A DNA stretch of 64,000 nucleotides, from the NCBI GenBank assembly GCA_964481125.1, contig CAYZSL010000002.1, forward strand, positions 24,597-88,596. The letters are read 5' to 3'. How positions within the stretch are numbered: position 1 is the first letter of the stretch; each line of letters opens with the position of its first letter. Origin of the DNA: an uncultured Candidatus Saccharibacteria bacterium (GTDB lineage Bacteria > Patescibacteriota > Minisyncoccia > Minisyncoccales > RBG-13-42-11). The notes under the pieces were generated by a model. That model did no database searches. It saw only the letters and a list, made by a program, of their open reading frames with translations, and was not told the DNA's origin. Shown here one piece after another: positions 12,940 through 57,520 of this stretch. The translations under genes were made by a program, and so were the position numbers.

Positions 12940-12991
12940 TAAATTGAAAATCGTCAAAGAGGCGGTTTTTTTGTTTTTTAGTAATGTATCT

Positions 12992-13013
12992 GGATGAACA
13001 ATGTTAGAACCTG
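12992..13013. promoter_or_regulatory. box-1 repeat copy a (GGATGAACAATGTTAGAACCTG)
   Basis: Member of the GACGATGTTAGAAC(C/T)TG motif family that recurs 3' of minus-strand genes in the 13-18 kb array. Confidence 0.5.
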
Positions 13014-13029
13014 GTTTGTAAAAGAAAAA

Positions 13030-13062
13030 TCCCCGAGCATATAACCCAGGGATTTTGTGGAC
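13030..13062 (-). terminator. rho-independent terminator after the 63-aa gene
   Basis: Minus strand: AAAATCCCtgggttatatgctcgGGGATTTTT. Confidence 0.5.
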
Positions 13063-13092
13063 AAAAACTCTCAACAGTTAATCTTCCCTACT

Positions 13093-13284
13093 CTATTTTA
13101 GTTCGGTCCTGATTTTTTTAGGCAACGCTTGCCACTCTTTCCAGGTAAAACGAGACACCCCATCGCAATTTGAACATTTTGCTATGGGCCCATTAACCGG
13201 TTGGTGATTCTTATCTTCACCATCCCAAAAACCTGTTTGTTTCCATTGATGATTACAATCTTTGTTTGGTTTCTTTTCGTCCAT
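13093..13284 (-). CDS. hypothetical small Cys/His-containing protein (63 aa)
   Basis: ATG at 13284 preceded by a strong SD (GAAAGGAGGAAATAatg). CNHQW..CSNCDG motif. The longer ORF to 13386 lacks an RBS. Confidence 0.45.
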   Translation of the reverse strand: MDEKKPNKDCNHQWKQTGFWDGEDKNHQPVNGPIAKCSNCDGVSRFTWKEWQALPKKIRTELK

Positions 13285-13307
13285 TATTTCCTCCTTTCTG
13301 AAATTTA

Positions 13308-13559
13308 TCAATCGTCGTGCGGTTTGAATTTCATCGGTCGAGTGGGAAATCTCGGGGAAGAGACAACATCGACTCTTTTTTTGCATTTAGGGCAGTAACT
13401 GAACTTACATGGGTATATCTTTTGTGCCTTATCTTTAGATAATATCTCTTCTCCTACCCTCAGCTTTGTCCCACAGTCTTTACAGAACATTTCGCCGAAT
13501 TCAAGTTCTCCTACGTCCTTTAGGTTTAATTCCTTCGCTATTTTATTATAATGAGCCAT
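13308..13559 (-). CDS. hypothetical Zn-ribbon protein (83 aa)
   Basis: Strong SD (AAAGGAGGTGTAGCTAatg). Two CxxC pairs (CKDCG..CPKCKK). Confidence 0.5.
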   Translation of the reverse strand: MAHYNKIAKELNLKDVGELEFGEMFCKDCGTKLRVGEEILSKDKAQKIYPCKFSYCPKCKKRVDVVSSPRFPTRPMKFKPHDD

Positions 13560-13620
13560 TAGCTACACCTCCTTTACTATTATCATATTATTGTTTATTT
13601 CTAGAAAATCAAGCCCTCTA

Positions 13621-13650
13621 CCAAAAATCGCCTGTTTGGCGAGGTGGCCG
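13621..13650 (-). promoter_or_regulatory. hairpin + TTTTTGGTAGAG module (terminator / extended -10-like)
   Basis: Minus strand CGCCaaacaGGCGATTTTTGGTAGAGG. Paralogous to the modules at 14425-14462 and 17040-17078. Confidence 0.4.
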
Positions 13651-13652
13651 AA

Positions 13653-13687
13653 ATTAGCTCCGCATCGTGGACGACGTTAGAACCAGG
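13653..13687. promoter_or_regulatory. box-2 copy b2 (ATTAGCTCC..GGACGACGTTAGAACCAGG)
   Basis: Shares TTAGCTCC and ACGnTTAGAACC with the long repeats at 17091-17155 and 17977-18049. Confidence 0.5.
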
Positions 13688-13734
13688 ATTATGGGAATTG
13701 AAGACGTTTTTGTTCCCGATTTGGATCTGTCTTC

Positions 13735-13753
13735 GGGACGATGTTAGAACCTG
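13735..13753. promoter_or_regulatory. box-1 copy b1 (GGGACGATGTTAGAACCTG)
   Basis: Directly abuts the stop codon of the gene at 13756..14391. Confidence 0.5.
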
Positions 13754-13755
13754 TT

Positions 13756-14391
13756 TTACTCTAAAAACCTAAAGGTAGAAAGTATTTGACTGAAAGTTCC
13801 ACAATTCCCTGAATAGCATTCTATAGGTTCAAGTTGATTGAATTCGTATAATTTTCCTTCTTTAAATATGCCTACATAAGCCTTGCTACTTTCATCTTGG
13901 GAAAAAGAAACAACAATTTTATATCCACTTAACCCTCCCACAGTAATTTCTTCTTTTTCAATTAAAGCGTCTCCAAACCCTGCTTCTTTCATCAATACCA
14001 TTTGTTCTTCAAACTCATCTTCCCATTCGGCAAGCGAAGAATACCATGTTTTGATTTGAAGCTCTATTCGTTCTATCGGGGGCAATCCATCAGAAAAATT
14101 CTTAATTTCCTCAATGGACATATTTCTAAACTCAATTTGATAATTTGATAATTCGACATGCCAATTATTAGGATATTTCATCTCAAACCCATATTCTTCA
14201 TTCTTATAAGTTTGCCAATCAGCAGTTTCATCTTGAATTGTTATAATTGTAAAGGTTGTTTGTTGTTCTAATAATGTAGTTGGTTCTGTTTTGGAGTTTT
14301 TACTTCCGAGAAAGTAAAACAATATTAAAAGTCCTCCAAGAAATACAACAATAAATATAATTAAAATTTTAGAAAAAGCTTTGTTTTGCAT
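13756..14391 (-). CDS. secreted/membrane-anchored paralog family protein A (N-terminal TM; ETADWQTYKNEEYGFEMKYP; C-terminal ILSTFRFLE)
   Basis: 211 aa. Shares the DETADWQTY(K/R)NEE(Y/C)GFE block and the ILSTF(K/R)F(L/I)(E/D) motif with the genes at 14634..15704 and 16121..17032. Confidence 0.6.
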   Translation of the reverse strand: MQNKAFSKILIIFIVVFLGGLLILFYFLGSKNSKTEPTTLLEQQTTFTIITIQDETADWQTYKNEEYGFEMKYPNNWHVELSNYQIEFRNMSIEEIKNFSDGLPPIERIELQIKTWYSSLAEWEDEFEEQMVLMKEAGFGDALIEKEEITVGGLSGYKIVVSFSQDESSKAYVGIFKEGKLYEFNQLEPIECYSGNCGTFSQILSTFRFLE

Positions 14392-14424
14392 ATTATTGTA
14401 TTATTTAATTAATCTTTCTTTATT

Positions 14425-14462
14425 CTACCAAAAAACCGCCCAAAACAATAGGCGGAATATTG
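14425..14462 (-). promoter_or_regulatory. hairpin + TTTTTTGGTAGAAT (extended -10-like) module upstream of paralog A
   Basis: Minus strand CCGCCTATTGTTTTGGGCGG-TTTTTTGGTAGAAT. The same module recurs upstream of paralog C at 17040-17078. Confidence 0.45.
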
Positions 14463-14463
14463 T

Positions 14464-14489
14464 CAGCTCGCCAAGTCGGACTTGAACCT
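14464..14489. promoter_or_regulatory. box-2 variant (AGGTTCAAGTCCGACTTGGCGAGCTGA on minus strand)
   Basis: Aligns with the minus-strand AGGTTCTAAGCG..GGGGAGCTAA of the other box-2 copies. Confidence 0.35.
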
Positions 14490-14566
14490 GCCAGCTAAGA
14501 GGAGATTTAGGTCGTTTGGGGAGTGGTACAGCCACGCGTCTCGGTCGGGGCTATTTTAAGCTAAAA

Positions 14567-14582
14567 TGTAACAAATGTTACA
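14567..14582. promoter_or_regulatory. perfect palindrome TGTAACAaaTGTTACA (operator-like), with a second half-site-bearing copy at 14601-14613
   Basis: 7-2-7 inverted repeat in the intergenic region between paralog B and paralog A. Confidence 0.35.
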
Positions 14583-14613
14583 CTAGAAAGGTATATTGGA
14601 GTGTTACATTTTA

Positions 14614-14630
14614 TGACGATGTTCGAACTT
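14614..14630. promoter_or_regulatory. box-1 copy c (TGACGATGTTCGAACTT)
   Basis: Lies immediately 3' of the paralog B stop codon. Core GTTCGAAC is a perfect palindrome. Confidence 0.5.
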
Positions 14631-14633
14631 ATT

Positions 14634-15704
14634 TTAGTCTAGAAATTTAAAAGTATTTTCTATTTTTTCCATTAAACCGCGATTTTGATCAAAATATTCT
14701 TTTGAACCGCTTGCCCCCCTCAACATATAAACAATATTATCACGGATAAAATATGTAGTAACAGTGGGGAAAATAAGAGACTCGTCATGGATCTTTCTTA
14801 CCGCCACCTCTCCCCCGATAATAATCCTTTCCTCTTCCGATTTAATCATACTATCAATGCTTTTACCTTCGCTATCATAAATTATAATATCTAGATCTAT
14901 TTTTTCATTAGGATCAATATCTTGTGTAGTAAACACATGATTTGGGTTATCGCTAATATTTGCAATTCTTTCACCAAGTATAGTTGGATCGCATGTGTAT
15001 TCTTCGGAAGTTAAAATAATACCCTCGGAATATTTTACATATTCACCAACTTTCAGATAAAACTCCTTAGGATATTTTATTTCAAAACCACATTCTTCAT
15101 TCCTGTAAGTCTGCCAATCGGCAGTTTCGTCTGACGTTGAGGTTGATGTCAGATTTGTAGATGGCGTTTCGGTAGATGTTGGCGTAGATACTGAAGTTTT
15201 AGGTATCCACCAATATTGATAAGCTAAAATAGCTCCACCGATGATTGCGGCAGCCAAAACAGTGATAAGGATGCCTATGGGGATAGATATTGTTTTATCT
15301 ATTCCATTAATTTTTTCTTGGTTCGTTATTCTTCTATCTAAATATTGGGCAAATAATATAATAAGGAAAGGTATCCCGAAAAATAAAATATTTGATAAAT
15401 CTGTTTTGTCTAACCTTCCCTGGGTCACAAAAAATAAGCGGTAAGCTTGAAATTCAAGCCAGATTATCCCTAAAATAATCAATCCATAAAGGTATTTGGC
15501 TTTTGTTTTCCTGAAAAACATTATTGAACCGTAAATTATAAAAGGTGCAAAAATAACATTTATGATGAGCGGCCATAAATTTACGTCTTTCCCGCCCATC
15601 AATACGCCGAATAATCCGAGGATAGACCCCCAGAAAAATAGATTAGCTAAACCAAAAAAATATATAGCAATAATAATATTTACTGCGGTAATTATTTTTT
15701 TCAT
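14634..15704 (-). CDS. paralog family protein B (multi-TM N-terminal region + ETADWQTYRNEECGFEIKYP domain; C-terminal ENTFKFLD)
   Basis: 356 aa. Four to five predicted TM helices, a Ser/Thr-rich linker, then the conserved paralog domain. Confidence 0.6.
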   Translation of the reverse strand: MKKIITAVNIIIAIYFFGLANLFFWGSILGLFGVLMGGKDVNLWPLIINVIFAPFIIYGSIMFFRKTKAKYLYGLIILGIIWLEFQAYRLFFVTQGRLDKTDLSNILFFGIPFLIILFAQYLDRRITNQEKINGIDKTISIPIGILITVLAAAIIGGAILAYQYWWIPKTSVSTPTSTETPSTNLTSTSTSDETADWQTYRNEECGFEIKYPKEFYLKVGEYVKYSEGIILTSEEYTCDPTILGERIANISDNPNHVFTTQDIDPNEKIDLDIIIYDSEGKSIDSMIKSEEERIIIGGEVAVRKIHDESLIFPTVTTYFIRDNIVYMLRGASGSKEYFDQNRGLMEKIENTFKFLD

Positions 15705-15724
15705 AATTAATTTAACGATATAAA

Positions 15725-16087
15725 TTAAACGAATCTTTTAGAGATTTTCCAGAAATAAACTAAAATCAGAGTCTGAATAACGGCTGCTATAAGCTGTATA
15801 TTGTCTATACTACGAGATGACAAAAAAGAATAAATTGTATTGATAATAGCTAGGGCAGTTATAACAGTATAGCCATAAAGAGCCCATTTCTTCATTTTTC
15901 GAAGACCGAATGAAGTAACAATAAGACCGACAGCGACAATCAATTCAAGCAATGCTAAGACGGGACTAAAAAGTAAAAGAGGCAATACCATAAACAATGA
16001 ACCAATTCCACCAAGCAATAAAAGAACTGATATATTTTTTACTGGTGATAGAAAAGATGATTTTTCTAAATCTGTTCCTATTTCCAT
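15725..16087 (-). CDS. hypothetical small membrane protein (about four TM helices)
   Basis: 120 aa, hydrophobic throughout. Sits between paralogs B and C. Confidence 0.45.
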   Translation of the reverse strand: MEIGTDLEKSSFLSPVKNISVLLLLGGIGSLFMVLPLLLFSPVLALLELIVAVGLIVTSFGLRKMKKWALYGYTVITALAIINTIYSFLSSRSIDNIQLIAAVIQTLILVYFWKISKRFV

Positions 16088-16120
16088 AATTTAAAATCTG
16101 TTAATTTATTAAATCGACCT

Positions 16121-17032
16121 TTATTCTTTAATAATGCTGAAAAAATCATCGCTGGAATCTGATAATGTGGCTCCTTTCACTCCTGGAAAAGCTCTCATTA
16201 CAATTTTGTATTTAGTGCCTAGCGGAATTGACGAGGGTATCGTCCAAAAATACGGGGGAGCGGCAACATTATCATTAATCATATATGTTTTTGTGGGAGC
16301 AGATAACCAATCCTCAAGCCAAATTGAAACATCGTAAGGCTGTTCCCAATCTATTTTATATGTTTTTCCAATTTCCCAAACTTCTCCGCCATTAGGAGAA
16401 ATCAAAATGAATTTATTTAAACTATCCTCTTCAATAAATTTAAAAGTGGAAAGTATTTTCTCAACACCATCCCTGACCTCATCTTTATACCATCCTGCAG
16501 CATCCCAAAAATCTCCATCAGAAGGACCTAAAGAGCTATAAATAGCAAAAAATTCATTATTTTCTGTTAAGTAACGAATAAATAATTTTTCATCAGTTTT
16601 TATTTCTTCACAAACTTTTTCTCCATCATTTCTTAAACAATAATCTTGAGGACATAATTTTATAAAAAACATATTTTCATATTTATCTTTTGGCATACTT
16701 CCAAAATATGGCTCTATGGGTTTAGTTTTAAAACTTAAAAGGACACATTCTGCTTCAAAAGGAAAGTATCCCTCAGTTGTTGTTCCAATCTCAATTTGAT
16801 ACCCATTTTCTTCAAAGACTGAGGGAACTTCAAATTCAAATCCATACTTCATATTCCTATAAATACCCCCATCGGCAGTTTCGTCGATTGGTTTTTCAGA
16901 AATAACTATATCTGGTTGGTTAGACAATTCTTCCTGGAAGTTGAAATACCGCCAATAGATAAATCCTCCAGCTAATATGGCTGAGATTAAGACAATACTA
17001 ATAGCTATTGTTGTAGGTATTTTCTTGTTCAT
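16121..17032 (-). CDS. paralog family protein C (N-terminal TM; IDETADGGIYRNMKYGFEFEVP; internal ILSTFKFIEE; C-terminal extension)
   Basis: 303 aa. Same domain as A and B plus an extra ~110-aa C-terminal domain. Confidence 0.6.
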   Translation of the reverse strand: MNKKIPTTIAISIVLISAILAGGFIYWRYFNFQEELSNQPDIVISEKPIDETADGGIYRNMKYGFEFEVPSVFEENGYQIEIGTTTEGYFPFEAECVLLSFKTKPIEPYFGSMPKDKYENMFFIKLCPQDYCLRNDGEKVCEEIKTDEKLFIRYLTENNEFFAIYSSLGPSDGDFWDAAGWYKDEVRDGVEKILSTFKFIEEDSLNKFILISPNGGEVWEIGKTYKIDWEQPYDVSIWLEDWLSAPTKTYMINDNVAAPPYFWTIPSSIPLGTKYKIVMRAFPGVKGATLSDSSDDFFSIIKE

Positions 17033-17039
17033 ATTACTC

Positions 17040-17078
17040 TATTCTACCAAAAAACCGCCCAAACAATAAAGCGGTATT
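17040..17078 (-). promoter_or_regulatory. hairpin + TTTTTTGGTAGAAT module directly upstream of paralog C (leaderless-type spacing)
   Basis: Minus strand CCGCTTTATTGTTTGGGCGG-TTTTTTGGTAGAATagagtaatATG. Confidence 0.45.
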
Positions 17079-17090
17079 ATCCACAAGTAA

Positions 17091-17155
17091 TTAGCTCCCC
17101 CTATGCAACACGCTTAGAACCTTAGATTGGATAAAGATAAGGGAAGAATTAGAAG
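17091..17155. repeat. 65-bp direct repeat copy 1 (box-2 d2: TTAGCTCCCCCTATGCAACACGCTTAGAACCTTAGATTGGATAAAGATAAGGGAAGAATTAGAAG)
   Basis: About 80% identical to 17977-18049. Together they flank the Cys-rich gene. Confidence 0.7.
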
Positions 17156-17181
17156 CTTTCGTTATAAAAGTGCCTGCTTTT

Positions 17182-17199
17182 GGACGATGTTAGAACTTG
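17182..17199. promoter_or_regulatory. box-1 copy d1 (GGACGATGTTAGAACTTG)
   Basis: Same motif family, about 75 bp downstream of box-2 d2. Confidence 0.5.
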
Positions 17200-17310
17200 T
17201 ATTTATTTTTAGAAATGAAAAGCCCGCAGAGTTTTGGTTTCTCTTTGGGCTTATCTATTCTTTTAGACCTTATCCCGCTAAGATATTTGGCAGGATGCGT
17301 AGCGAGAACG

Positions 17311-17904
17311 CTATGTGTCCAAGGATTTCGGATTACTCTCCCAGCTTCGCATTATTTTCTTAATCTGCTGGGCCAGGTTGGGCGATTCTTTGAGCTTCTC
17401 TATGAAAACAGGGCACGCTGAACATTCTGTAGCTTTCCCGCCGAACAACAACGATCCTACAAGGGTCTTTGTTAGGGATTTTCTCGGGTCATCATCTTGA
17501 TTCCCGGGCCCTTTAATTTTTGTCTTTTCTTCTTCTTCCGTCATCGTCGGCGGCTCAAGACAGAACTTTTCCCAACCACAAGCTTTGCATTGAGGCAATG
17601 CCTCCTTACTGTCCTGCATTAGCTCTTTAATCTTTTGCGACAAGACGGACTCGTCCATCCTCCGCGCAAGACCGGGACAAACCTGACAGACCTTATCTTT
17701 GCCCAGAAACATCATCGTCCCCATCAGCATACCGAATCCAGCATCCTCTGGGTTATCAAACTCCTCTCGGGCATCTCTCTCCATCGCCCTGAGAGTCGTT
17801 TGCACCTCTTGCCAGGTCATAACCGGTGGTTTAATGCAGAACTGGTTCCACTTACAAGTCTTACAGTTTACCATTGTTTCAACCTCTTCGAGTATGTCAG
17901 CCAT
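17311..17904 (-). CDS. Cys-rich tandem-domain protein (2 x [CKxCxWxxFC..PP..CxxCP]), hypothetical metal-binding
   Basis: 197 aa with SD GGAGG 8 nt upstream. Internal duplication of a ~90-aa unit. About 48% GC, well above neighbours. Flanked by the direct repeats at 17091-17155 and 17977-18049. Confidence 0.6.
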   Translation of the reverse strand: MADILEEVETMVNCKTCKWNQFCIKPPVMTWQEVQTTLRAMERDAREEFDNPEDAGFGMLMGTMMFLGKDKVCQVCPGLARRMDESVLSQKIKELMQDSKEALPQCKACGWEKFCLEPPTMTEEEEKTKIKGPGNQDDDPRKSLTKTLVGSLLFGGKATECSACPVFIEKLKESPNLAQQIKKIMRSWESNPKSLDT

Positions 17905-17941
17905 TTAAAACCTCCAACAATTATTTTATTTTGCTTAAAAT

Positions 17942-17971
17942 AATAATACCATATTATATGGTATTTGTCAA
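17942..17971 (-). promoter_or_regulatory. sigma70-like promoter TTGACA-17-TATTAT for the Cys-rich gene
   Basis: Minus strand CTTGACAaataccatataatatggTATTAT, immediately downstream of the repeat copy 'e' GAGCTAA box. Confidence 0.45.
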
Positions 17972-17976
17972 GTTTT

Positions 17977-18049
17977 TAGCTCCCCCCTATTGGATACGTT
18001 CAGAACTTTAGATTGGGTAAACATAAGGGAAAAGATGAGGGAATTGAGG
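17977..18049. repeat. direct repeat copy 2 (box-2 e)
   Basis: TTAGCTCCCCCCTATTGGATACGTTCAGAACTTTAGATTGGGTAAACATAAGGGAAAAGATGAGGGAATTGAGG. Confidence 0.7.
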
Positions 18050-18171
18050 TTTGCGTAAAGGAAAAGAGCTCAACTGGCGTTGGCTCTTTCTCTTCAATTA
18101 CCTTAGGTCGCTGAGGGCAACCTGATTAGCCAAGAAGCGACTAATCTGTTTAGGATTTTTAACCTAAGTTT

Positions 18172-18426
18172 TTATGCAAACATTGGTCGATACCAGGCCT
18201 TTGGCACGTTTGCATCAATCCACTTGATGGCGACCTCTTTTAAGGTCAACCAAAATATGGAATATAGGGGGGCAGGATATTCATCTGCGGGTCTGTCCCA
18301 AGTAATCCTGTAACCTGGCGTTAATTCCTCAATCTTCGGAATTGCCATCTCCATAACCTCTTCTGCTTGATCTTCAAACATTCCTTTGTCAACCAGCATT
18401 TTTTTAAGCTTTTCTCTTGTTGTCAT
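18172..18426 (-). CDS. hypothetical protein (84 aa)
   Basis: RBS GAGGAAGGA upstream; hairpin terminator downstream (18050-18110). Confidence 0.45.
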   Translation of the reverse strand: MTTREKLKKMLVDKGMFEDQAEEVMEMAIPKIEELTPGYRITWDRPADEYPAPLYSIFWLTLKEVAIKWIDANVPKAWYRPMFA

Positions 18427-18511
18427 TATTTCCTTCCTCTCAGTCTGCTTAGCATTTTTCTAAATCAGCCTATAACAAAATAATACCACATAAATGTGGT
18501 TTTGTCAATAT

Positions 18512-18540
18512 TGGCTCCGGAGGTAGGATTCGAACCGCTA
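18512..18540 (-). other. tRNA 3'-end-like fragment (GGTTCGAATCCTACCTCCGGAGCCA) without a matching 5' half
   Basis: The reverse complement reads as T-loop + T-stem + acceptor 3' strand + discriminator + CCA, but no D-arm, anticodon arm or pairing acceptor 5' strand is present. It abuts the iorB stop codon. Confidence 0.35.
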
Positions 18541-19122
18541 ATTCTTTTTAGCTAATTCGAACGCTTTCAAGTTTAACTCCAAATATTTTTCCGGAATTAG
18601 CTTTTTAATAGCTTTTTGAATAGATAGCGGCTTTAAAGGTATTAAACCTTTAAAAGCGGCAAAGCTCATTAAATAAATCCCTGATACAACGCTGTTTCCC
18701 AGCTTTTCCTGGCAGATTTTTTCAGCTGGAATCAAATGAATGTTTTTGCTGATTTTTTTTAACTGATTCATAATTTCAGCTTCAGACAAAGGTTTTTTCA
18801 AAGGAATGGGAATGACAAACTTATTTATTAAAAAGTTTGTTTTCGGATTGGCAAAATATAGTCCGTTTAAAATCTCCTGCTCTTCCAATCCTAAAACCAG
18901 ATCTGCTTTACCTTGAGCAACCATAGGAGAATAAATTTTCTTGCCAAACCTGATATGCACTTCAACTGAACCGCCTCTCTGGGATAAGCCGTGAAGCTCG
19001 GAAGTCCTGACATTATAACCTTCAAACACAGCTGCTTCTGAAATTATCTGTAAAAGAGTAATCAAGCCCTGTCCTCCAGTGCCAACTATCATCATATTAA
19101 ATTGTTCTGCTTTTTTAATCAT
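18538..19122 (-). CDS. iorB: indolepyruvate/2-oxoacid:ferredoxin oxidoreductase subunit beta (gamma-type)
   Basis: 194 aa. MIVGTGGQG motif of POR/IOR gamma domains. 4-bp overlap with iorA. Confidence 0.7.
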   Translation of the reverse strand: MIKKAEQFNMMIVGTGGQGLITLLQIISEAAVFEGYNVRTSELHGLSQRGGSVEVHIRFGKKIYSPMVAQGKADLVLGLEEQEILNGLYFANPKTNFLINKFVIPIPLKKPLSEAEIMNQLKKISKNIHLIPAEKICQEKLGNSVVSGIYLMSFAAFKGLIPLKPLSIQKAIKKLIPEKYLELNLKAFELAKKN

Positions 19123-20738
19123 TTTTTAGGGACAACGAATTTACAAGGATGTTTAGAAACGATTACCGAAACCTCTTCTTTTACCAAAAACTCTTTTATC
19201 GTATCGATAAATTCCTTCTGGTTTACAGGATCAATGGTTTTAACATTTTTTACCCCGCAGGCCCTGACCAATTTCTCAATATTGATATCAGTCTCTGTGC
19301 CAACAGAAACAGGGTGCGGCTGATGGCCTGTCATGGCAGTGGTTTCATTATTCAAAATAATGATCAATGGGTTTGATTTGTTAAAAACAGTGTTTATCAA
19401 AGCCGGTATGCCAGAATGAAAGAAAGAAGAATCGCCGACAAAAGTAATCAGCTTTTGCGAGGTAGCTTTTTTAATTCCATGGGCAATACCGACCGAAGAA
19501 CCCATACAAGACAAATAATCCTGAAGATTGATCGGCGAATTGCCAAAAAGCATATAACAGCCTATCTCGCCCCCGAATACCACCTTATTCACATCAACCG
19601 CCTTTTTAATAGCTGAAACAACCAACCAGTAAGGACATCCAGGACAAAGCTGAGGAGAACGCCTTAAAGGTTTAAAATCTGATTTTCTCGATTTATATGA
19701 CTTACCGGTTATTTTCGCAATAGCTTCAGCCACATATTCCGGCTTCAATTCTCCAACCACCGGCAATACATTCTTTCCGAAAACCTCCAGTTTGCAGTTA
19801 GCTTGCTTAGCCAGTCTTTCAACTTCTTTTTCCAAATGCGATTCCAATTCTTCAACCACTAAAACCTTTTTAAGATTCTTAATAAATGATTTTATTCCTT
19901 TTTCCGCCAAAGGATAGGAAAAAGTAAGCTTCAAAACCGGCAAATCCAGCTTCATTTCGGTTAAAGCTTCCCTAACATATAGATAAGAAACACCAGAGGT
20001 AATAATACCTGTTTTTTGCTTTGCACCCTCTATTTTCAATAAACTTTCAGAAACACTTCTAATTTTTTCTATCTTTTCAAAAAGCTCTTTTTTCATTTCC
20101 AGAACTCTTGGCGGCAAAGTAACAAATCTTTTTACGTCTTTGACAAAAGTTCCCTTTTTAAAACCAGAAGACTTAAAAGCAGACATTCTAACTGGCATTT
20201 TCTGATGAGCCACTCTGGTAGTTGTTCTGATCATGACCGGAATATTGAATTTCTCTGACATTTTAAAGCCCAGTTTTACGAAATCCAAACACTCTTGCGG
20301 GTCTGAGGGCTCCAAAATCGGTATATGGACAATATTATCCATGGGCCTGGTATTCTCTTCTGACTGGGCTGAACTGTGACAAGAAGGATCATCTGCCACG
20401 ATAATAACTGTCGGACCTTTAGCTCCTGTATAAACAAAAGGAATTAAAGCATCCAAACAAACGTTCAAGCCGAAATTCTTCATGGCTACCAATGTTTTTA
20501 AACCGGAAAAACTGGCGCCAACGCCAGCTTCCAAAGCCACTTTTTCATTAGTCGAAAATTCAAAATAAACGCCAGCATCTTTGGCAATTTTAAAAAAAGT
20601 GTTGCCTATTTCAGAAGCCGGAGTACCAGGATAAGTTGAAACAAAATTGACGCCTGCTTCCAGGGCGCCTCGAACAATTGCTTCATTACCCAATAAGATA
20701 ATTTTCTTCCCGCCTTCTTTTGAAAGGAGTTTATCCAT
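19119..20738 (-). CDS. iorA: indolepyruvate:ferredoxin oxidoreductase subunit alpha (TPP-binding, 4Fe-4S)
   Basis: 539 aa. TPP-binding GDSSFFHSG motif and Cys cluster CPGCPYW. Confidence 0.75.
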   Translation of the reverse strand: MDKLLSKEGGKKIILLGNEAIVRGALEAGVNFVSTYPGTPASEIGNTFFKIAKDAGVYFEFSTNEKVALEAGVGASFSGLKTLVAMKNFGLNVCLDALIPFVYTGAKGPTVIIVADDPSCHSSAQSEENTRPMDNIVHIPILEPSDPQECLDFVKLGFKMSEKFNIPVMIRTTTRVAHQKMPVRMSAFKSSGFKKGTFVKDVKRFVTLPPRVLEMKKELFEKIEKIRSVSESLLKIEGAKQKTGIITSGVSYLYVREALTEMKLDLPVLKLTFSYPLAEKGIKSFIKNLKKVLVVEELESHLEKEVERLAKQANCKLEVFGKNVLPVVGELKPEYVAEAIAKITGKSYKSRKSDFKPLRRSPQLCPGCPYWLVVSAIKKAVDVNKVVFGGEIGCYMLFGNSPINLQDYLSCMGSSVGIAHGIKKATSQKLITFVGDSSFFHSGIPALINTVFNKSNPLIIILNNETTAMTGHQPHPVSVGTETDINIEKLVRACGVKNVKTIDPVNQKEFIDTIKEFLVKEEVSVIVSKHPCKFVVPKK

Positions 20739-57088: not shown

Positions 57089-57520
57089 TTATGAAGCCGG
57101 CTTGGCCTCAATGTGCCTTAATGGCTGGTTGACTTCATGCGCGCGGTGAGACGTAGCGACCTCTTCTTGGTCAGTGCCATCGAAGACATCAAATTTGTCC
57201 CTTATATGCCTAAAGAATGGCACCAATGGCGCTAAGAAAGCTGTCAGCAGAGCTAACACAGTAAGGAATATGAGAAATGCCGCAAAAAACGCTCCGAATG
57301 TGTTAACCAGACTGGGTAATGCTGGTTCCAGGATCCCGCCGTTGTATATTGGAGAAAGAACATCGCCACTAGGGCTGCTCAGCATGGCCGGCATTACGAC
57401 TGTTGCCTTACCAACGTCGATTGAGCTGTCAGCCTTAGCAGGTGTCGGTGTCAGGAGGACGGAGCAAGCTACTAGCAAAACTGCCAGTACCCCGAATATA
57501 GTCGGAAATCTTTCTCTCAT
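57089..57520 (-). CDS. GC-rich small lipoprotein-like membrane protein (hypothetical)
   Basis: 143 aa. SD AGGGAGG; signal peptide with LVAC lipobox-like site; one additional TM helix. At least 50% GC. Confidence 0.5.
   Translation of the reverse strand: MRERFPTIFGVLAVLLVACSVLLTPTPAKADSSIDVGKATVVMPAMLSSPSGDVLSPIYNGGILEPALPSLVNTFGAFFAAFLIFLTVLALLTAFLAPLVPFFRHIRDKFDVFDGTDQEEVATSHRAHEVNQPLRHIEAKPAS

Follow-up and report, generated by a model that had tools for sequence, protein, structure and literature searches.

The window analysed here is a stretch of 64,000 nucleotides of contig CAYZSL010000002.1, and the gene under study is a minus-strand open reading frame (ORF) at 17311–17904, present in the ORF calls, that encodes a cysteine-rich protein of 197 amino acids. 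It lies between the genes of two other proteins, p84 upstream and p303 downstream, and has a copy of a direct repeat on each side. What is new in this analysis is an unannotated, phage-associated family of four-cysteine domains, to which the protein belongs, and a conserved, oriented intergenic element of Patescibacteria, of which the repeats are copies. The features of the gene itself are the following.

17943–17971, minus strand: promoter of the cysteine-rich gene, sigma-70-type TTGACA-17-(TG)TATTAT, 11/12 matches and a TG extension
17911–17915, minus strand: ribosome-binding site GGAGG, 6 nt before the ATG, read from the sequence
17611–17904, minus strand: domain 1, amino acids 1–98; putative ligands C14, C17, C23 and C76, plus the variable C73
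17311–17610, minus strand: domain 2, amino acids 99–197 and the stop; putative ligands C106, C109, C115 and C164, plus C161
17211–17261, minus strand: intrinsic terminator of the gene (−18.3 kcal/mol, z = −5.8), then UUUUCAUUU

Read along the minus strand, the order is p84, its terminator, the right repeat, the promoter, GGAGG, the cysteine-rich ORF, its terminator, the left repeat, a hairpin-TTTTTT-TGGTAGAAT module and p303. The original prediction, made from the sequence before this analysis, had placed a TTGACA-17-TATTAT promoter beside the right repeat; we found this arrangement on the minus strand, where the repeat copy ends 7 nt before a promoter that ties for the best promoter-like site of the region. 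The spacer of this promoter is the palindrome ACCATAT-A-ATATGGT (hairpin fold, z = −3.0). Because the gene has its own promoter, GGAGG and a strong terminator, it is predicted to be a monocistronic, self-sufficient transcription unit. Promoters of the type TTGACA-AAnACCAyA-N3-5-TrTGGTAT-TAT recur at 18480–18508 and 17943–17971 on the minus strand of the window, as well as in contigs L012, L019, L009 and L028; their spacer of 17 nt is a palindrome able to form a hairpin, with a T-rich run after it, and could double as a terminator or an operator. For the palindromic spacer of the cysteine-rich gene an operator role was rejected, since none of the three homologues described below has the palindrome in its promoter.

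The protein is an internal duplication (residues 9–98 against 100–187, 33% identity, E = 3e-13), which bears out the two units of ~90 amino acids described in the original prediction, including their cysteine spacing, CxxCxWxxFC...PP...CxxCP in each half. When 5.8 billion proteins were searched, only three full-length homologues were recovered, with 56–62% identity, all of them on contigs of 1–1.7 kb and in other gene contexts; we named these contigs L001 (62% protein identity), L002 and L006. All three homologues have near-consensus promoters and similar terminators, and the terminator found in the window is conserved 3′ of the homologues in L001 and L006. An exhaustive profile search of 1.84 billion representatives gave 79 clusters at E ≤ 1e-3, nearly all of 60–125 amino acids and aligning with one or the other half. 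When both halves were aligned with 31 single-domain members, C14, C17, C23, C76 and M96 proved to be invariant and W19, P26 and P27 at least 90% conserved, while the first cysteine of the CxxCP pair varies. The family is thus recognised by CX2C-x-W-x3-C-x2-PP...C(P) within a unit of ~95 amino acids, and both halves of the window protein have these hallmarks. Its C-terminal helix ends in the invariant methionine, with I/V-K/R 3–4 residues before it in most members. One single-domain member, P0005, has an N-terminus like that of domain 1 and a C-terminus like that of domain 2, which is consistent with the tandem form having arisen from a duplicated gene of this kind.

No family match for the protein was found in Pfam, even of the Fer4 type at E ≤ 1, and none in NCBIfam, PHROG, PADLOC or the sequences of the PDB, in keeping with the earlier remark that it was not recognised as a common zinc ribbon or ferredoxin. 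Its spacing is CX2CX5C...CX2CP instead of the CX2CX2CX3CP of Fer4 ferredoxins. Among zinc ribbons and treble clefs, which carry two CxxC knuckles on β-hairpins, the protein matched OapC only, below threshold (E = 0.07), and Zn_ribbon_9 matched one of the 33 family members (0.008); a zinc ribbon is also countered by the variable first cysteine of the second pair, by the mainly helical model and by a Foldseek search against the PDB in which all matches had E > 1. WhiB-like proteins, with their order C-Xn-C-X2-C-X5-C and a G[V/I]WGG turn, can be set aside in the same way, given the lack of a match to the Pfam Whib model, the reversed order of the cysteines and the lack of a structural match in the PDB. 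The four-cysteine domain is therefore an unannotated protein family without a Pfam, PHROG or PDB counterpart.

Structure prediction, one of the checks named in the original prediction, gave a confident, mostly helical domain without a known fold. The AlphaFold2 model of domain 1 (predicted local distance difference test score, pLDDT, 89.5) consists of five helices and a two-residue β-bridge that joins positions 24–25 with 74–75, beside the cysteine-bearing loops. In the full-length model the same bridge appears in domain 2; this model has a pLDDT of 72, a predicted template modelling score of 0.40 and an uncertain interdomain arrangement. Foldseek found no fold match in the PDB or BFVD (all E > 1). 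Since the four invariant cysteines lie in two apposed loops, we infer that these loops would gather them into one metal centre per domain, and hence two in the tandem protein. By analogy, the centre is more likely [4Fe-4S] than zinc, because of the pattern of a CX2CX5C triad with a distal cysteine. The motif CX13CX2CX5C of NUBP1/Nbp35 ligates [4Fe-4S] (PMC8007109), and the iron-sulfur motif of Dna2/AddB is CX248CX2CX5C (PMC3439918).

A CX2CX5C motif with one remote cysteine is shared by the new family, WhiB-like proteins, NUBP1/Nbp35, the "iron staple" of Dna2/AddB and the auxiliary clusters of SPASM proteins, with a Cys-Pro at the fourth ligand in most family members as a further likeness. 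The resemblance to the WhiB-like proteins of actinobacteria and actinophages extends to small size, mostly helical structure and frequent occurrence in phages. However, the distal cysteine follows the triad in the new family and precedes it in WhiB-like proteins and the other CX2CX5C motifs; the W and PP-x-MT motifs are specific to the new family, and its metal site is a predicted one.

The neighbourhood of the gene offers a role for such a protein, which could be the ferredoxin-like electron carrier that the adjacent indolepyruvate:ferredoxin oxidoreductase lacks. IorA (19119–20738, minus strand, 539 amino acids) matches positions 2–534 of the 595-position IOR_alpha model, below the cut-off, and shows POR_N and TPP_enzyme_C domains only. 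The carrier role is proposed because the usual C-terminal ferredoxin domain with two [4Fe-4S] clusters is missing from IorA; the cysteine-rich gene is located two genes downstream, and its product could carry two clusters. Nevertheless, we consider this role extremely unlikely, since none of the four relatives examined, whose IorA is equally short (539–540 amino acids), carries such a gene downstream, the gene is equipped with its own promoter and terminator, p84 and a terminator lie between it and iorB, its homologues stand beside unrelated genes, its single-domain relatives are in phages, and the protein lacks a Fer4 signature. We rather infer that the cysteine-rich protein is a small, phage-derived binding or regulatory factor that depends on a metal or on redox state, and neither an enzyme nor a dedicated partner of IorAB.

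Every single-domain member whose context was examined lies on a phage or phage-like contig. Two of them, P0030 and P0007, are located within runs of small, co-directional, overlapping ORFs, one of which includes a YopX/phrog_98 gene. A scan of IMG/VR revealed four viral contigs (15–98 kb) with relatives of the domain; the viral contigs that carry it range in GC content from 0.36 to 0.72, and no neighbour of the viral single-domain genes is common to them beyond two closely related contigs. In L038, primase, RNA-ligase and HNH genes are found near the single-domain gene. A tblastn search of 50,697 records of cultured phages gave no match for either the tandem or the viral single-domain query. 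These contexts suggest that the window gene is the chromosomal, duplicated counterpart of a small protein associated with phages.

The original prediction had also described the gene as GC-rich (~48%) in a low-GC background, and the composition agrees with this. Its GC content is 0.48, against a mean of 0.372 (standard deviation 0.045) for the 54 large ORFs of the window (z = 2.4), among which it ranks second, and its GC content at third codon positions (GC3) is 0.556, against 0.356 (standard deviation 0.071; z = 2.8). In a 300-nt profile, GC peaks at 0.47–0.49 over the gene and is 0.27–0.37 in the flanks. Likewise, the homologues in L001, L002 and L006 are 4–11 points richer in GC than their own flanks. 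The highest GC content of any ORF in the window (0.498) is that of 57089–57520 on the minus strand, which encodes a membrane protein of 143 amino acids without a Pfam match, follows a TTGACA...TATAAA promoter and is possibly a further foreign module.

Comparison with relatives showed that the gene lies in a variable region, whose features are listed here.

12940–18537, no strand: variable island of 5.6 kb, from the stop of iorB (18538) to the stop of a convergent gene resembling that for 5-enolpyruvylshikimate-3-phosphate (EPSP) synthase (12939)
18172–18426, minus strand: p84, 84 amino acids, upstream neighbour of the cysteine-rich gene, with its own TTGACA-17-TATTAT promoter at 18508–18480
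18058–18094, minus strand: intrinsic terminator hairpin of p84 (−16.9 kcal/mol, z = −3.7), then UUUUCCUU
16121–17032, minus strand: p303, membrane-anchored, downstream neighbour of the cysteine-rich gene

IorB (18538–19122) has many close homologues, which made it possible to compare this junction between genomes. In L031 (a 538-kb contig, IorB 86% identical) and L033 (85%), the gene series LeuRS-GlmS-IorA-IorB directly abuts the convergent EPSP synthase-CofD pair; the window has the same frame genes, plus 5.6 kb between IorB and EPSP synthase. Other small genes occupy the island position in L029 and L030 (IorB 92% identical), and a different cargo that includes a large serine recombinase is found there in L032 (87%). 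In BLAST comparisons, homology to the relatives is restricted to both island edges. Because the island is missing in close relatives or replaced by other cargo, the cysteine-rich gene is accessory, and it was probably acquired horizontally. In the original prediction it was a laterally acquired cassette, to be recognised by an empty site with a single copy of the repeat in related genomes. Empty sites do exist, in L031 and L033, and the accessory status, the foreign-looking composition and the absence of the island in relatives support lateral acquisition; however, at these sites the whole island is gone and no repeat copy is present, and the repeats do not mark the ends of a cassette.

The cargo 3′ of IorB in L032 (4743–10292) comprises the large serine recombinase, a ParB-N6 methyltransferase, an HTH_17 protein and an MmeI-type restriction-modification gene, and therefore an integrative element uses the same hot spot. 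In the window, the island contains p84, the cysteine-rich gene, p303, p120, p356, p211 and small ORFs, and its flanks are housekeeping genes, so that the cysteine-rich gene does not lie in a prophage. None of the six island proteins matches PHROG, and p84 has no match in Pfam, NCBIfam, PHROG or PADLOC. PADLOC gave no matches on the island, and for this reason we rejected its interpretation as a defence system. The proteins p303, p356 and p211 (13756–17032, minus strand) share an N-terminal membrane anchor followed by the motif ETADWQTY(R/K)NEEYGFE, and so they make up a paralogous family of exported proteins.

The GC anomaly has a second possible source, namely selection on the codon usage or mRNA of a native gene with very high expression. 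The promoter and ribosome-binding site come close to the consensus, p84 and the gene at L019:3386–3970 share the promoter type and a high GC content, and GC3 is high in all four genomes that have the full-length gene; since it persists despite a protein identity of 56–62%, there has been no amelioration. Set against this are the absence of the gene in close relatives and its position in a hot-spot island, its extreme rarity (four clusters among the 5.8 billion proteins) and the phage-borne state of the related domains, in view of which we regard a native origin of this composition as unlikely. An expression-linked GC3 would in any case leave unchanged the accessory status of the gene, which comes from synteny.

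The direct repeats beside the gene, and the modules associated with them, are located as follows.

17969–18056, minus strand: right element copy, profile match 17982–18038 (nhmmer, 56.5 bits), ends GGGGGGAGC, 7 nt before the −35
17084–17199, minus strand: left element copy, "long" form, core 17084–17155, profile match 17094–17154 (nhmmer, 61.3 bits)
17180–17199, minus strand: upstream box of the left copy, GTTCTAACATCGTCCAA on the minus strand, which recurs in L001, L015, L020, L023, L026 and L019
17041–17075, minus strand: hairpin + TTTTTT + TGGTAGAAT module (a hairpin like that of a terminator, fused to an extended −10), 8 nt before the ATG of p303 (17032)
14463–14635, minus strand: third, longer relative of the element, which starts with a box-like AAGTTCGAACATCGTCA and ends ...GGTTCAAGTCCGACTTGGCGAGC (...GGCGAGC)

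The two copies are 82% identical between 17097–17145 and 17983–18031 and 89% identical in the extension (17084–17101 against 17969–17986), with 80% overall identity across ~90 aligned columns, as the original prediction had estimated. A 30-nt degenerate core of the repeat has only these two sites in the 64 kb, and none of 100 shuffles matched it. To look for copies in other genomes, we built a 23-position pattern from the two window copies and the copy upstream of the L001 homologue, which matched 20 JGI metagenome contigs; a 19-position pattern matched 16 species-representative genomes, of which ~13, mostly classed as Patescibacteria, Parcubacteria or Nealsonbacteria, hold true full-length copies. 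Overall, the element was found in more than 30 Patescibacteria contigs. An nhmmer profile revealed further copies, co-oriented and clustered, with five within 2.5 kb in L019 and two or three each in L009, L010, L012, L018, L023, L028, L042 and L045. A large number of short contigs break off within the element or close to it, L008 inside the left copy, as is typical of multi-copy repeats in assemblies.

Read in the direction of the flanking genes, the element of ~60 nt has the consensus cttcnAATTCTTCCCTTATnTTtntCCAATCnAnnGTTCTgAAtGcGTCCaaTAGGGGGAGC, the first 36 nt of which are pyrimidine-rich, with 5% G. "Long" copies carry an extra upstream box, GGTTCTAACATCGTCCA, whereas in "short" copies the upstream box is joined to the GGGGGAGC end. 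The element starts 23–170 nt 3′ of a co-oriented gene, often past the terminator of that gene, and the next co-oriented gene begins 45–185 nt beyond it. What follows the element is either, after 6–8 nt, a TTGACA promoter with a palindromic spacer, an architecture that L012, L019, L009 and L028 share with the window, or the hairpin-T6-TGGTAGAAT module, which recurs in this position in L009, L011, L014, L015, L019, L022, L023 and L026. Co-orientation with the element was observed for ~13/15 neighbours on each side in a first set, and for 12:3 upstream and 10:4 downstream neighbours in an independent set. These neighbours are functionally unrelated; those downstream of the element include genes for a GFO/IDH oxidoreductase, a cupin, a DUF805 protein, a P-type ATPase and an EngB GTPase, and the element also separates core genes, such as those of an EngB-type GTPase and of RRM proteins. 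The flanking repeats of the cysteine-rich gene are therefore copies of a modular, orientation-specific intergenic element family of the clade, placed between terminators and promoters. It follows that the repeats cannot be read, as they had been, as brackets of a cassette, since the same element flanks unrelated genes, and only one of its neighbours shows a GC anomaly. This gene, at L019:3386–3970, encodes 194 amino acids that are unrelated in sequence to the cysteine-rich protein; it has a GC content of 0.48 in a locus of 0.38, two full element copies around it and a promoter with a palindromic spacer.

Several observations concern the surroundings of the element. The intergenic segment at 14463–14635 (~175 nt, fold z-score −1.85) is 87–88% identical to L029:5657–5827 and L030:2615–2788, in differently filled islands, and resembles the modular element family, of which it would be a longer member. 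The TTTTTTGGTAGAAT module ends 6–8 nt before the downstream ATG in the window (17030–17054, minus strand, p303), in L015 and in L019 (4205–4256), a position that suggests leaderless mRNAs; in L015 it is likewise a p303-like gene that is preceded by an element copy. A conserved intergenic module with a terminator, ...AAGTAAGYGTT...TTTATTTAGGACAAGAAATCAGC-loop-GCTGGTTTTTTG, occurs at L002:1000–1095, in L009, L011, L017, L022 and L028 and at L019:5520–5580; it is often directly upstream of the element, and in L002 it follows the homologue of the cysteine-rich gene, with no full element after it. Between the element and the promoter of the homologue in L001 (290–430), we observed an extra extended −10 (TGCTATAAT) and then a GC-rich segment of ~120 nt ending in a hairpin; this segment may be a small RNA, and it has no Rfam match.

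We considered several identities for the element. A structured RNA or riboswitch was rejected because no Rfam match was obtained at the gathering threshold or at E ≤ 10 and there is no covariation; single-sequence folds of the repeat copies gave z from −0.1 to +1.1 on both strands, and folds of the consensus alignment gave −4.3 and −3.3 kcal/mol, with no covariation. A fragment of a tRNA or tmRNA was rejected since ARAGORN finds distant genes only, and the template or variable repeat of a diversity-generating retroelement since the mismatches are not adenine-specific and no reverse transcriptase is nearby. A gene-specific cis-regulator does not agree with the unrelated downstream genes, and a target-site duplication does not agree with the occurrence of the repeat in more than 30 unrelated contigs or with the lack of a copy at the empty sites of L031 and L033. 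As regards a miniature inverted-repeat transposable element, the ends CTTCCCTTAT and ATAGGGGGAG are complementary at 8/10 positions and no flanking duplication is evident. An attC site would have hairpin-forming inverted core sites (RYYYAAC ... GTTRRRY), which the element lacks, its two boxes being direct and not inverted repeats. The remnant of a longer gene was rejected as well, because a profile search with LPLLDAFRTxDW gave ORF calls of 34–66 amino acids only, and Pfam gave nothing.

The last of these candidates has a variant in which the opposite strand of the element is a tiny gene, or what is left of one, for a peptide of ~30–50 amino acids with the core LPLLDAFRTxDWxKIREEL. Almost every copy keeps this frame open, and many of the differences between copies are synonymous or conservative; the first 12 codons of two L019 copies show five synonymous and zero non-synonymous changes, and gene callers predicted nine such ORFs (34–66 amino acids), one of them in Candidatus Nealsonbacteria. 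We nonetheless find a coding function highly improbable, given that the frame has no conserved start codon or Shine-Dalgarno sequence and an in-frame stop directly before "LPL" in about a third of the copies, and that its Nei-Gojobori ratio of non-synonymous to synonymous differences (pN/pS) of 0.42 is not clearly below that of other frames (0.46–0.60). In addition, the second conserved box belongs to another reading frame and includes the stop codon, no longer parent protein exists among the 5.8 billion sequences, and the ~80% co-orientation with the flanking genes would make the ORF almost always antisense, which is unusual for a gene.

The function of the element may be that of a boundary or termination signal, a protein-binding site or a recombination site. 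The first of these, a signal of transcription termination or insulation, would fit the co-orientation and the G-poor 5′ half. In the last, single-gene modules would be inserted, deleted or shuffled when co-oriented copies recombine, either site-specifically or through the boxes, in a logic that can be likened to that of integron cassettes or dif-flanked modules. Copies are clustered, co-oriented and bracket single genes, as in the 2.5 kb of L019 with its five copies and in L009, L023, L010, L012, L018 and L028; both window copies bracket one accessory gene inside a hot-spot island, the element-gene-element order is also seen in L001 at 62% protein identity, and a related element is common to different islands at the same hot spot. 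Moreover, "long" copies have a second box of ~18 nt (TGGACGATGTTAGAACC) ~75 nt from the first, and "short" copies look as if they had arisen by deletion from one box to the other. On the other hand, no recombinase domain was found within ±10 kb of the gene (the whole window was not searched) or beside the L019 and L023 arrays, the element shows no attC-like inverted repeat or hairpin and does not fold significantly on either strand, it stands between core genes too, L002 and L006 carry the gene without the element, and no filled and empty pair differing by exactly one module was found. A recombination site is for these reasons quite unlikely, and it is very doubtful that the ~60-nt element is the recombination or insertion site of an unrecognised, integron-independent gene-cassette system of the candidate phyla radiation (CPR), in which whole modules of one gene with its promoter and terminator would come, go and be exchanged at chromosomal hot spots, with the cysteine-rich gene as one phage-derived metal-binding cassette.

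The similarity to integron cassettes lies in the mostly single, small, unrelated and co-oriented genes, with a recurring site of ~60 nt between them, in variable regions. Unlike these cassettes, the modules have their own promoters and terminators, the element has neither R″/R′ inverted core sites nor a folded bottom strand, and no integrase was found nearby. The element resembles the short intergenic repeats BIME/REP of Escherichia coli, BOX of pneumococci, ERIC and Correia/NEMIS in being short (30–130 nt), modular and present in several combinations, in being restricted to intergenic regions near gene 3′ ends and promoters, and in being multi-copy, clustered, assembly-breaking and conserved across a clade. 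In contrast to them, it has a core that lacks a strong palindrome and a stable hairpin, its 10-nt terminal inverted repeats are weak (8/10), it is strongly co-oriented with transcription, and its core is more conserved across species than the neighbouring protein genes. We know of no transposase associated with the element, and a search of the literature on CPR intergenic repeats turned up nothing relevant.

Phage morons are autonomous accessory transcription units in prophages, as in those of lambdoid phages. The cysteine-rich gene resembles a moron because it has phage-associated relatives, its own promoter and terminator and an odd base composition, and it lies between unrelated genes; unlike a moron, it lies in a chromosomal variable island without recognisable phage genes and is flanked by a clade-specific intergenic element. 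With a probability of about 0.6, we favour the explanation that the gene is a moron-like accessory module in a hot-spot island and that its flanks are copies of a clade-wide element. According to this explanation, an autonomous accessory module would sit between iorB and the EPSP-synthase gene in the chromosome of an ultra-small Parcubacteria/Paceibacterota (CPR) bacterium, a single-domain phage-type gene would have been duplicated to give the tandem chromosomal form, and the element would mark the boundaries of transcription units, without having been created by the insertion of the gene.

Several points weigh against this explanation. The high GC3 could reflect codon selection under strong expression, and the gene at L019:3386–3970, with the same promoter type and bracketed by the element, also has a GC content of 0.48. 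Both element copies of the window bracket this one gene, and the same order recurs around the L001 homologue, so the link between gene and element may exceed coincidence. No phage genes accompany the cysteine-rich gene in the window, and therefore a direct phage origin of its tandem version is a presumption. Finally, the clustering of the cysteines is taken from the β-bridge only, and metal binding, the kind of metal and the function of the protein are predictions.

The compact four-cysteine domain occurs in phages of 36–72% GC and, in duplicated version, in CPR chromosomes. If it is a true iron-sulfur binder, it would represent a second family, unrelated to the WhiB-like proteins, of small cluster-bearing factors of phages and their hosts. 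The junction between iorB and the EPSP-synthase gene is a hot spot with empty, differently filled and recombinase-bearing states, which makes it a natural system for studying gene flux in CPR bacteria. The element, in turn, may point to a signal for boundaries, termination or recombination that has yet to be described, in organisms about whose gene regulation almost nothing is known.

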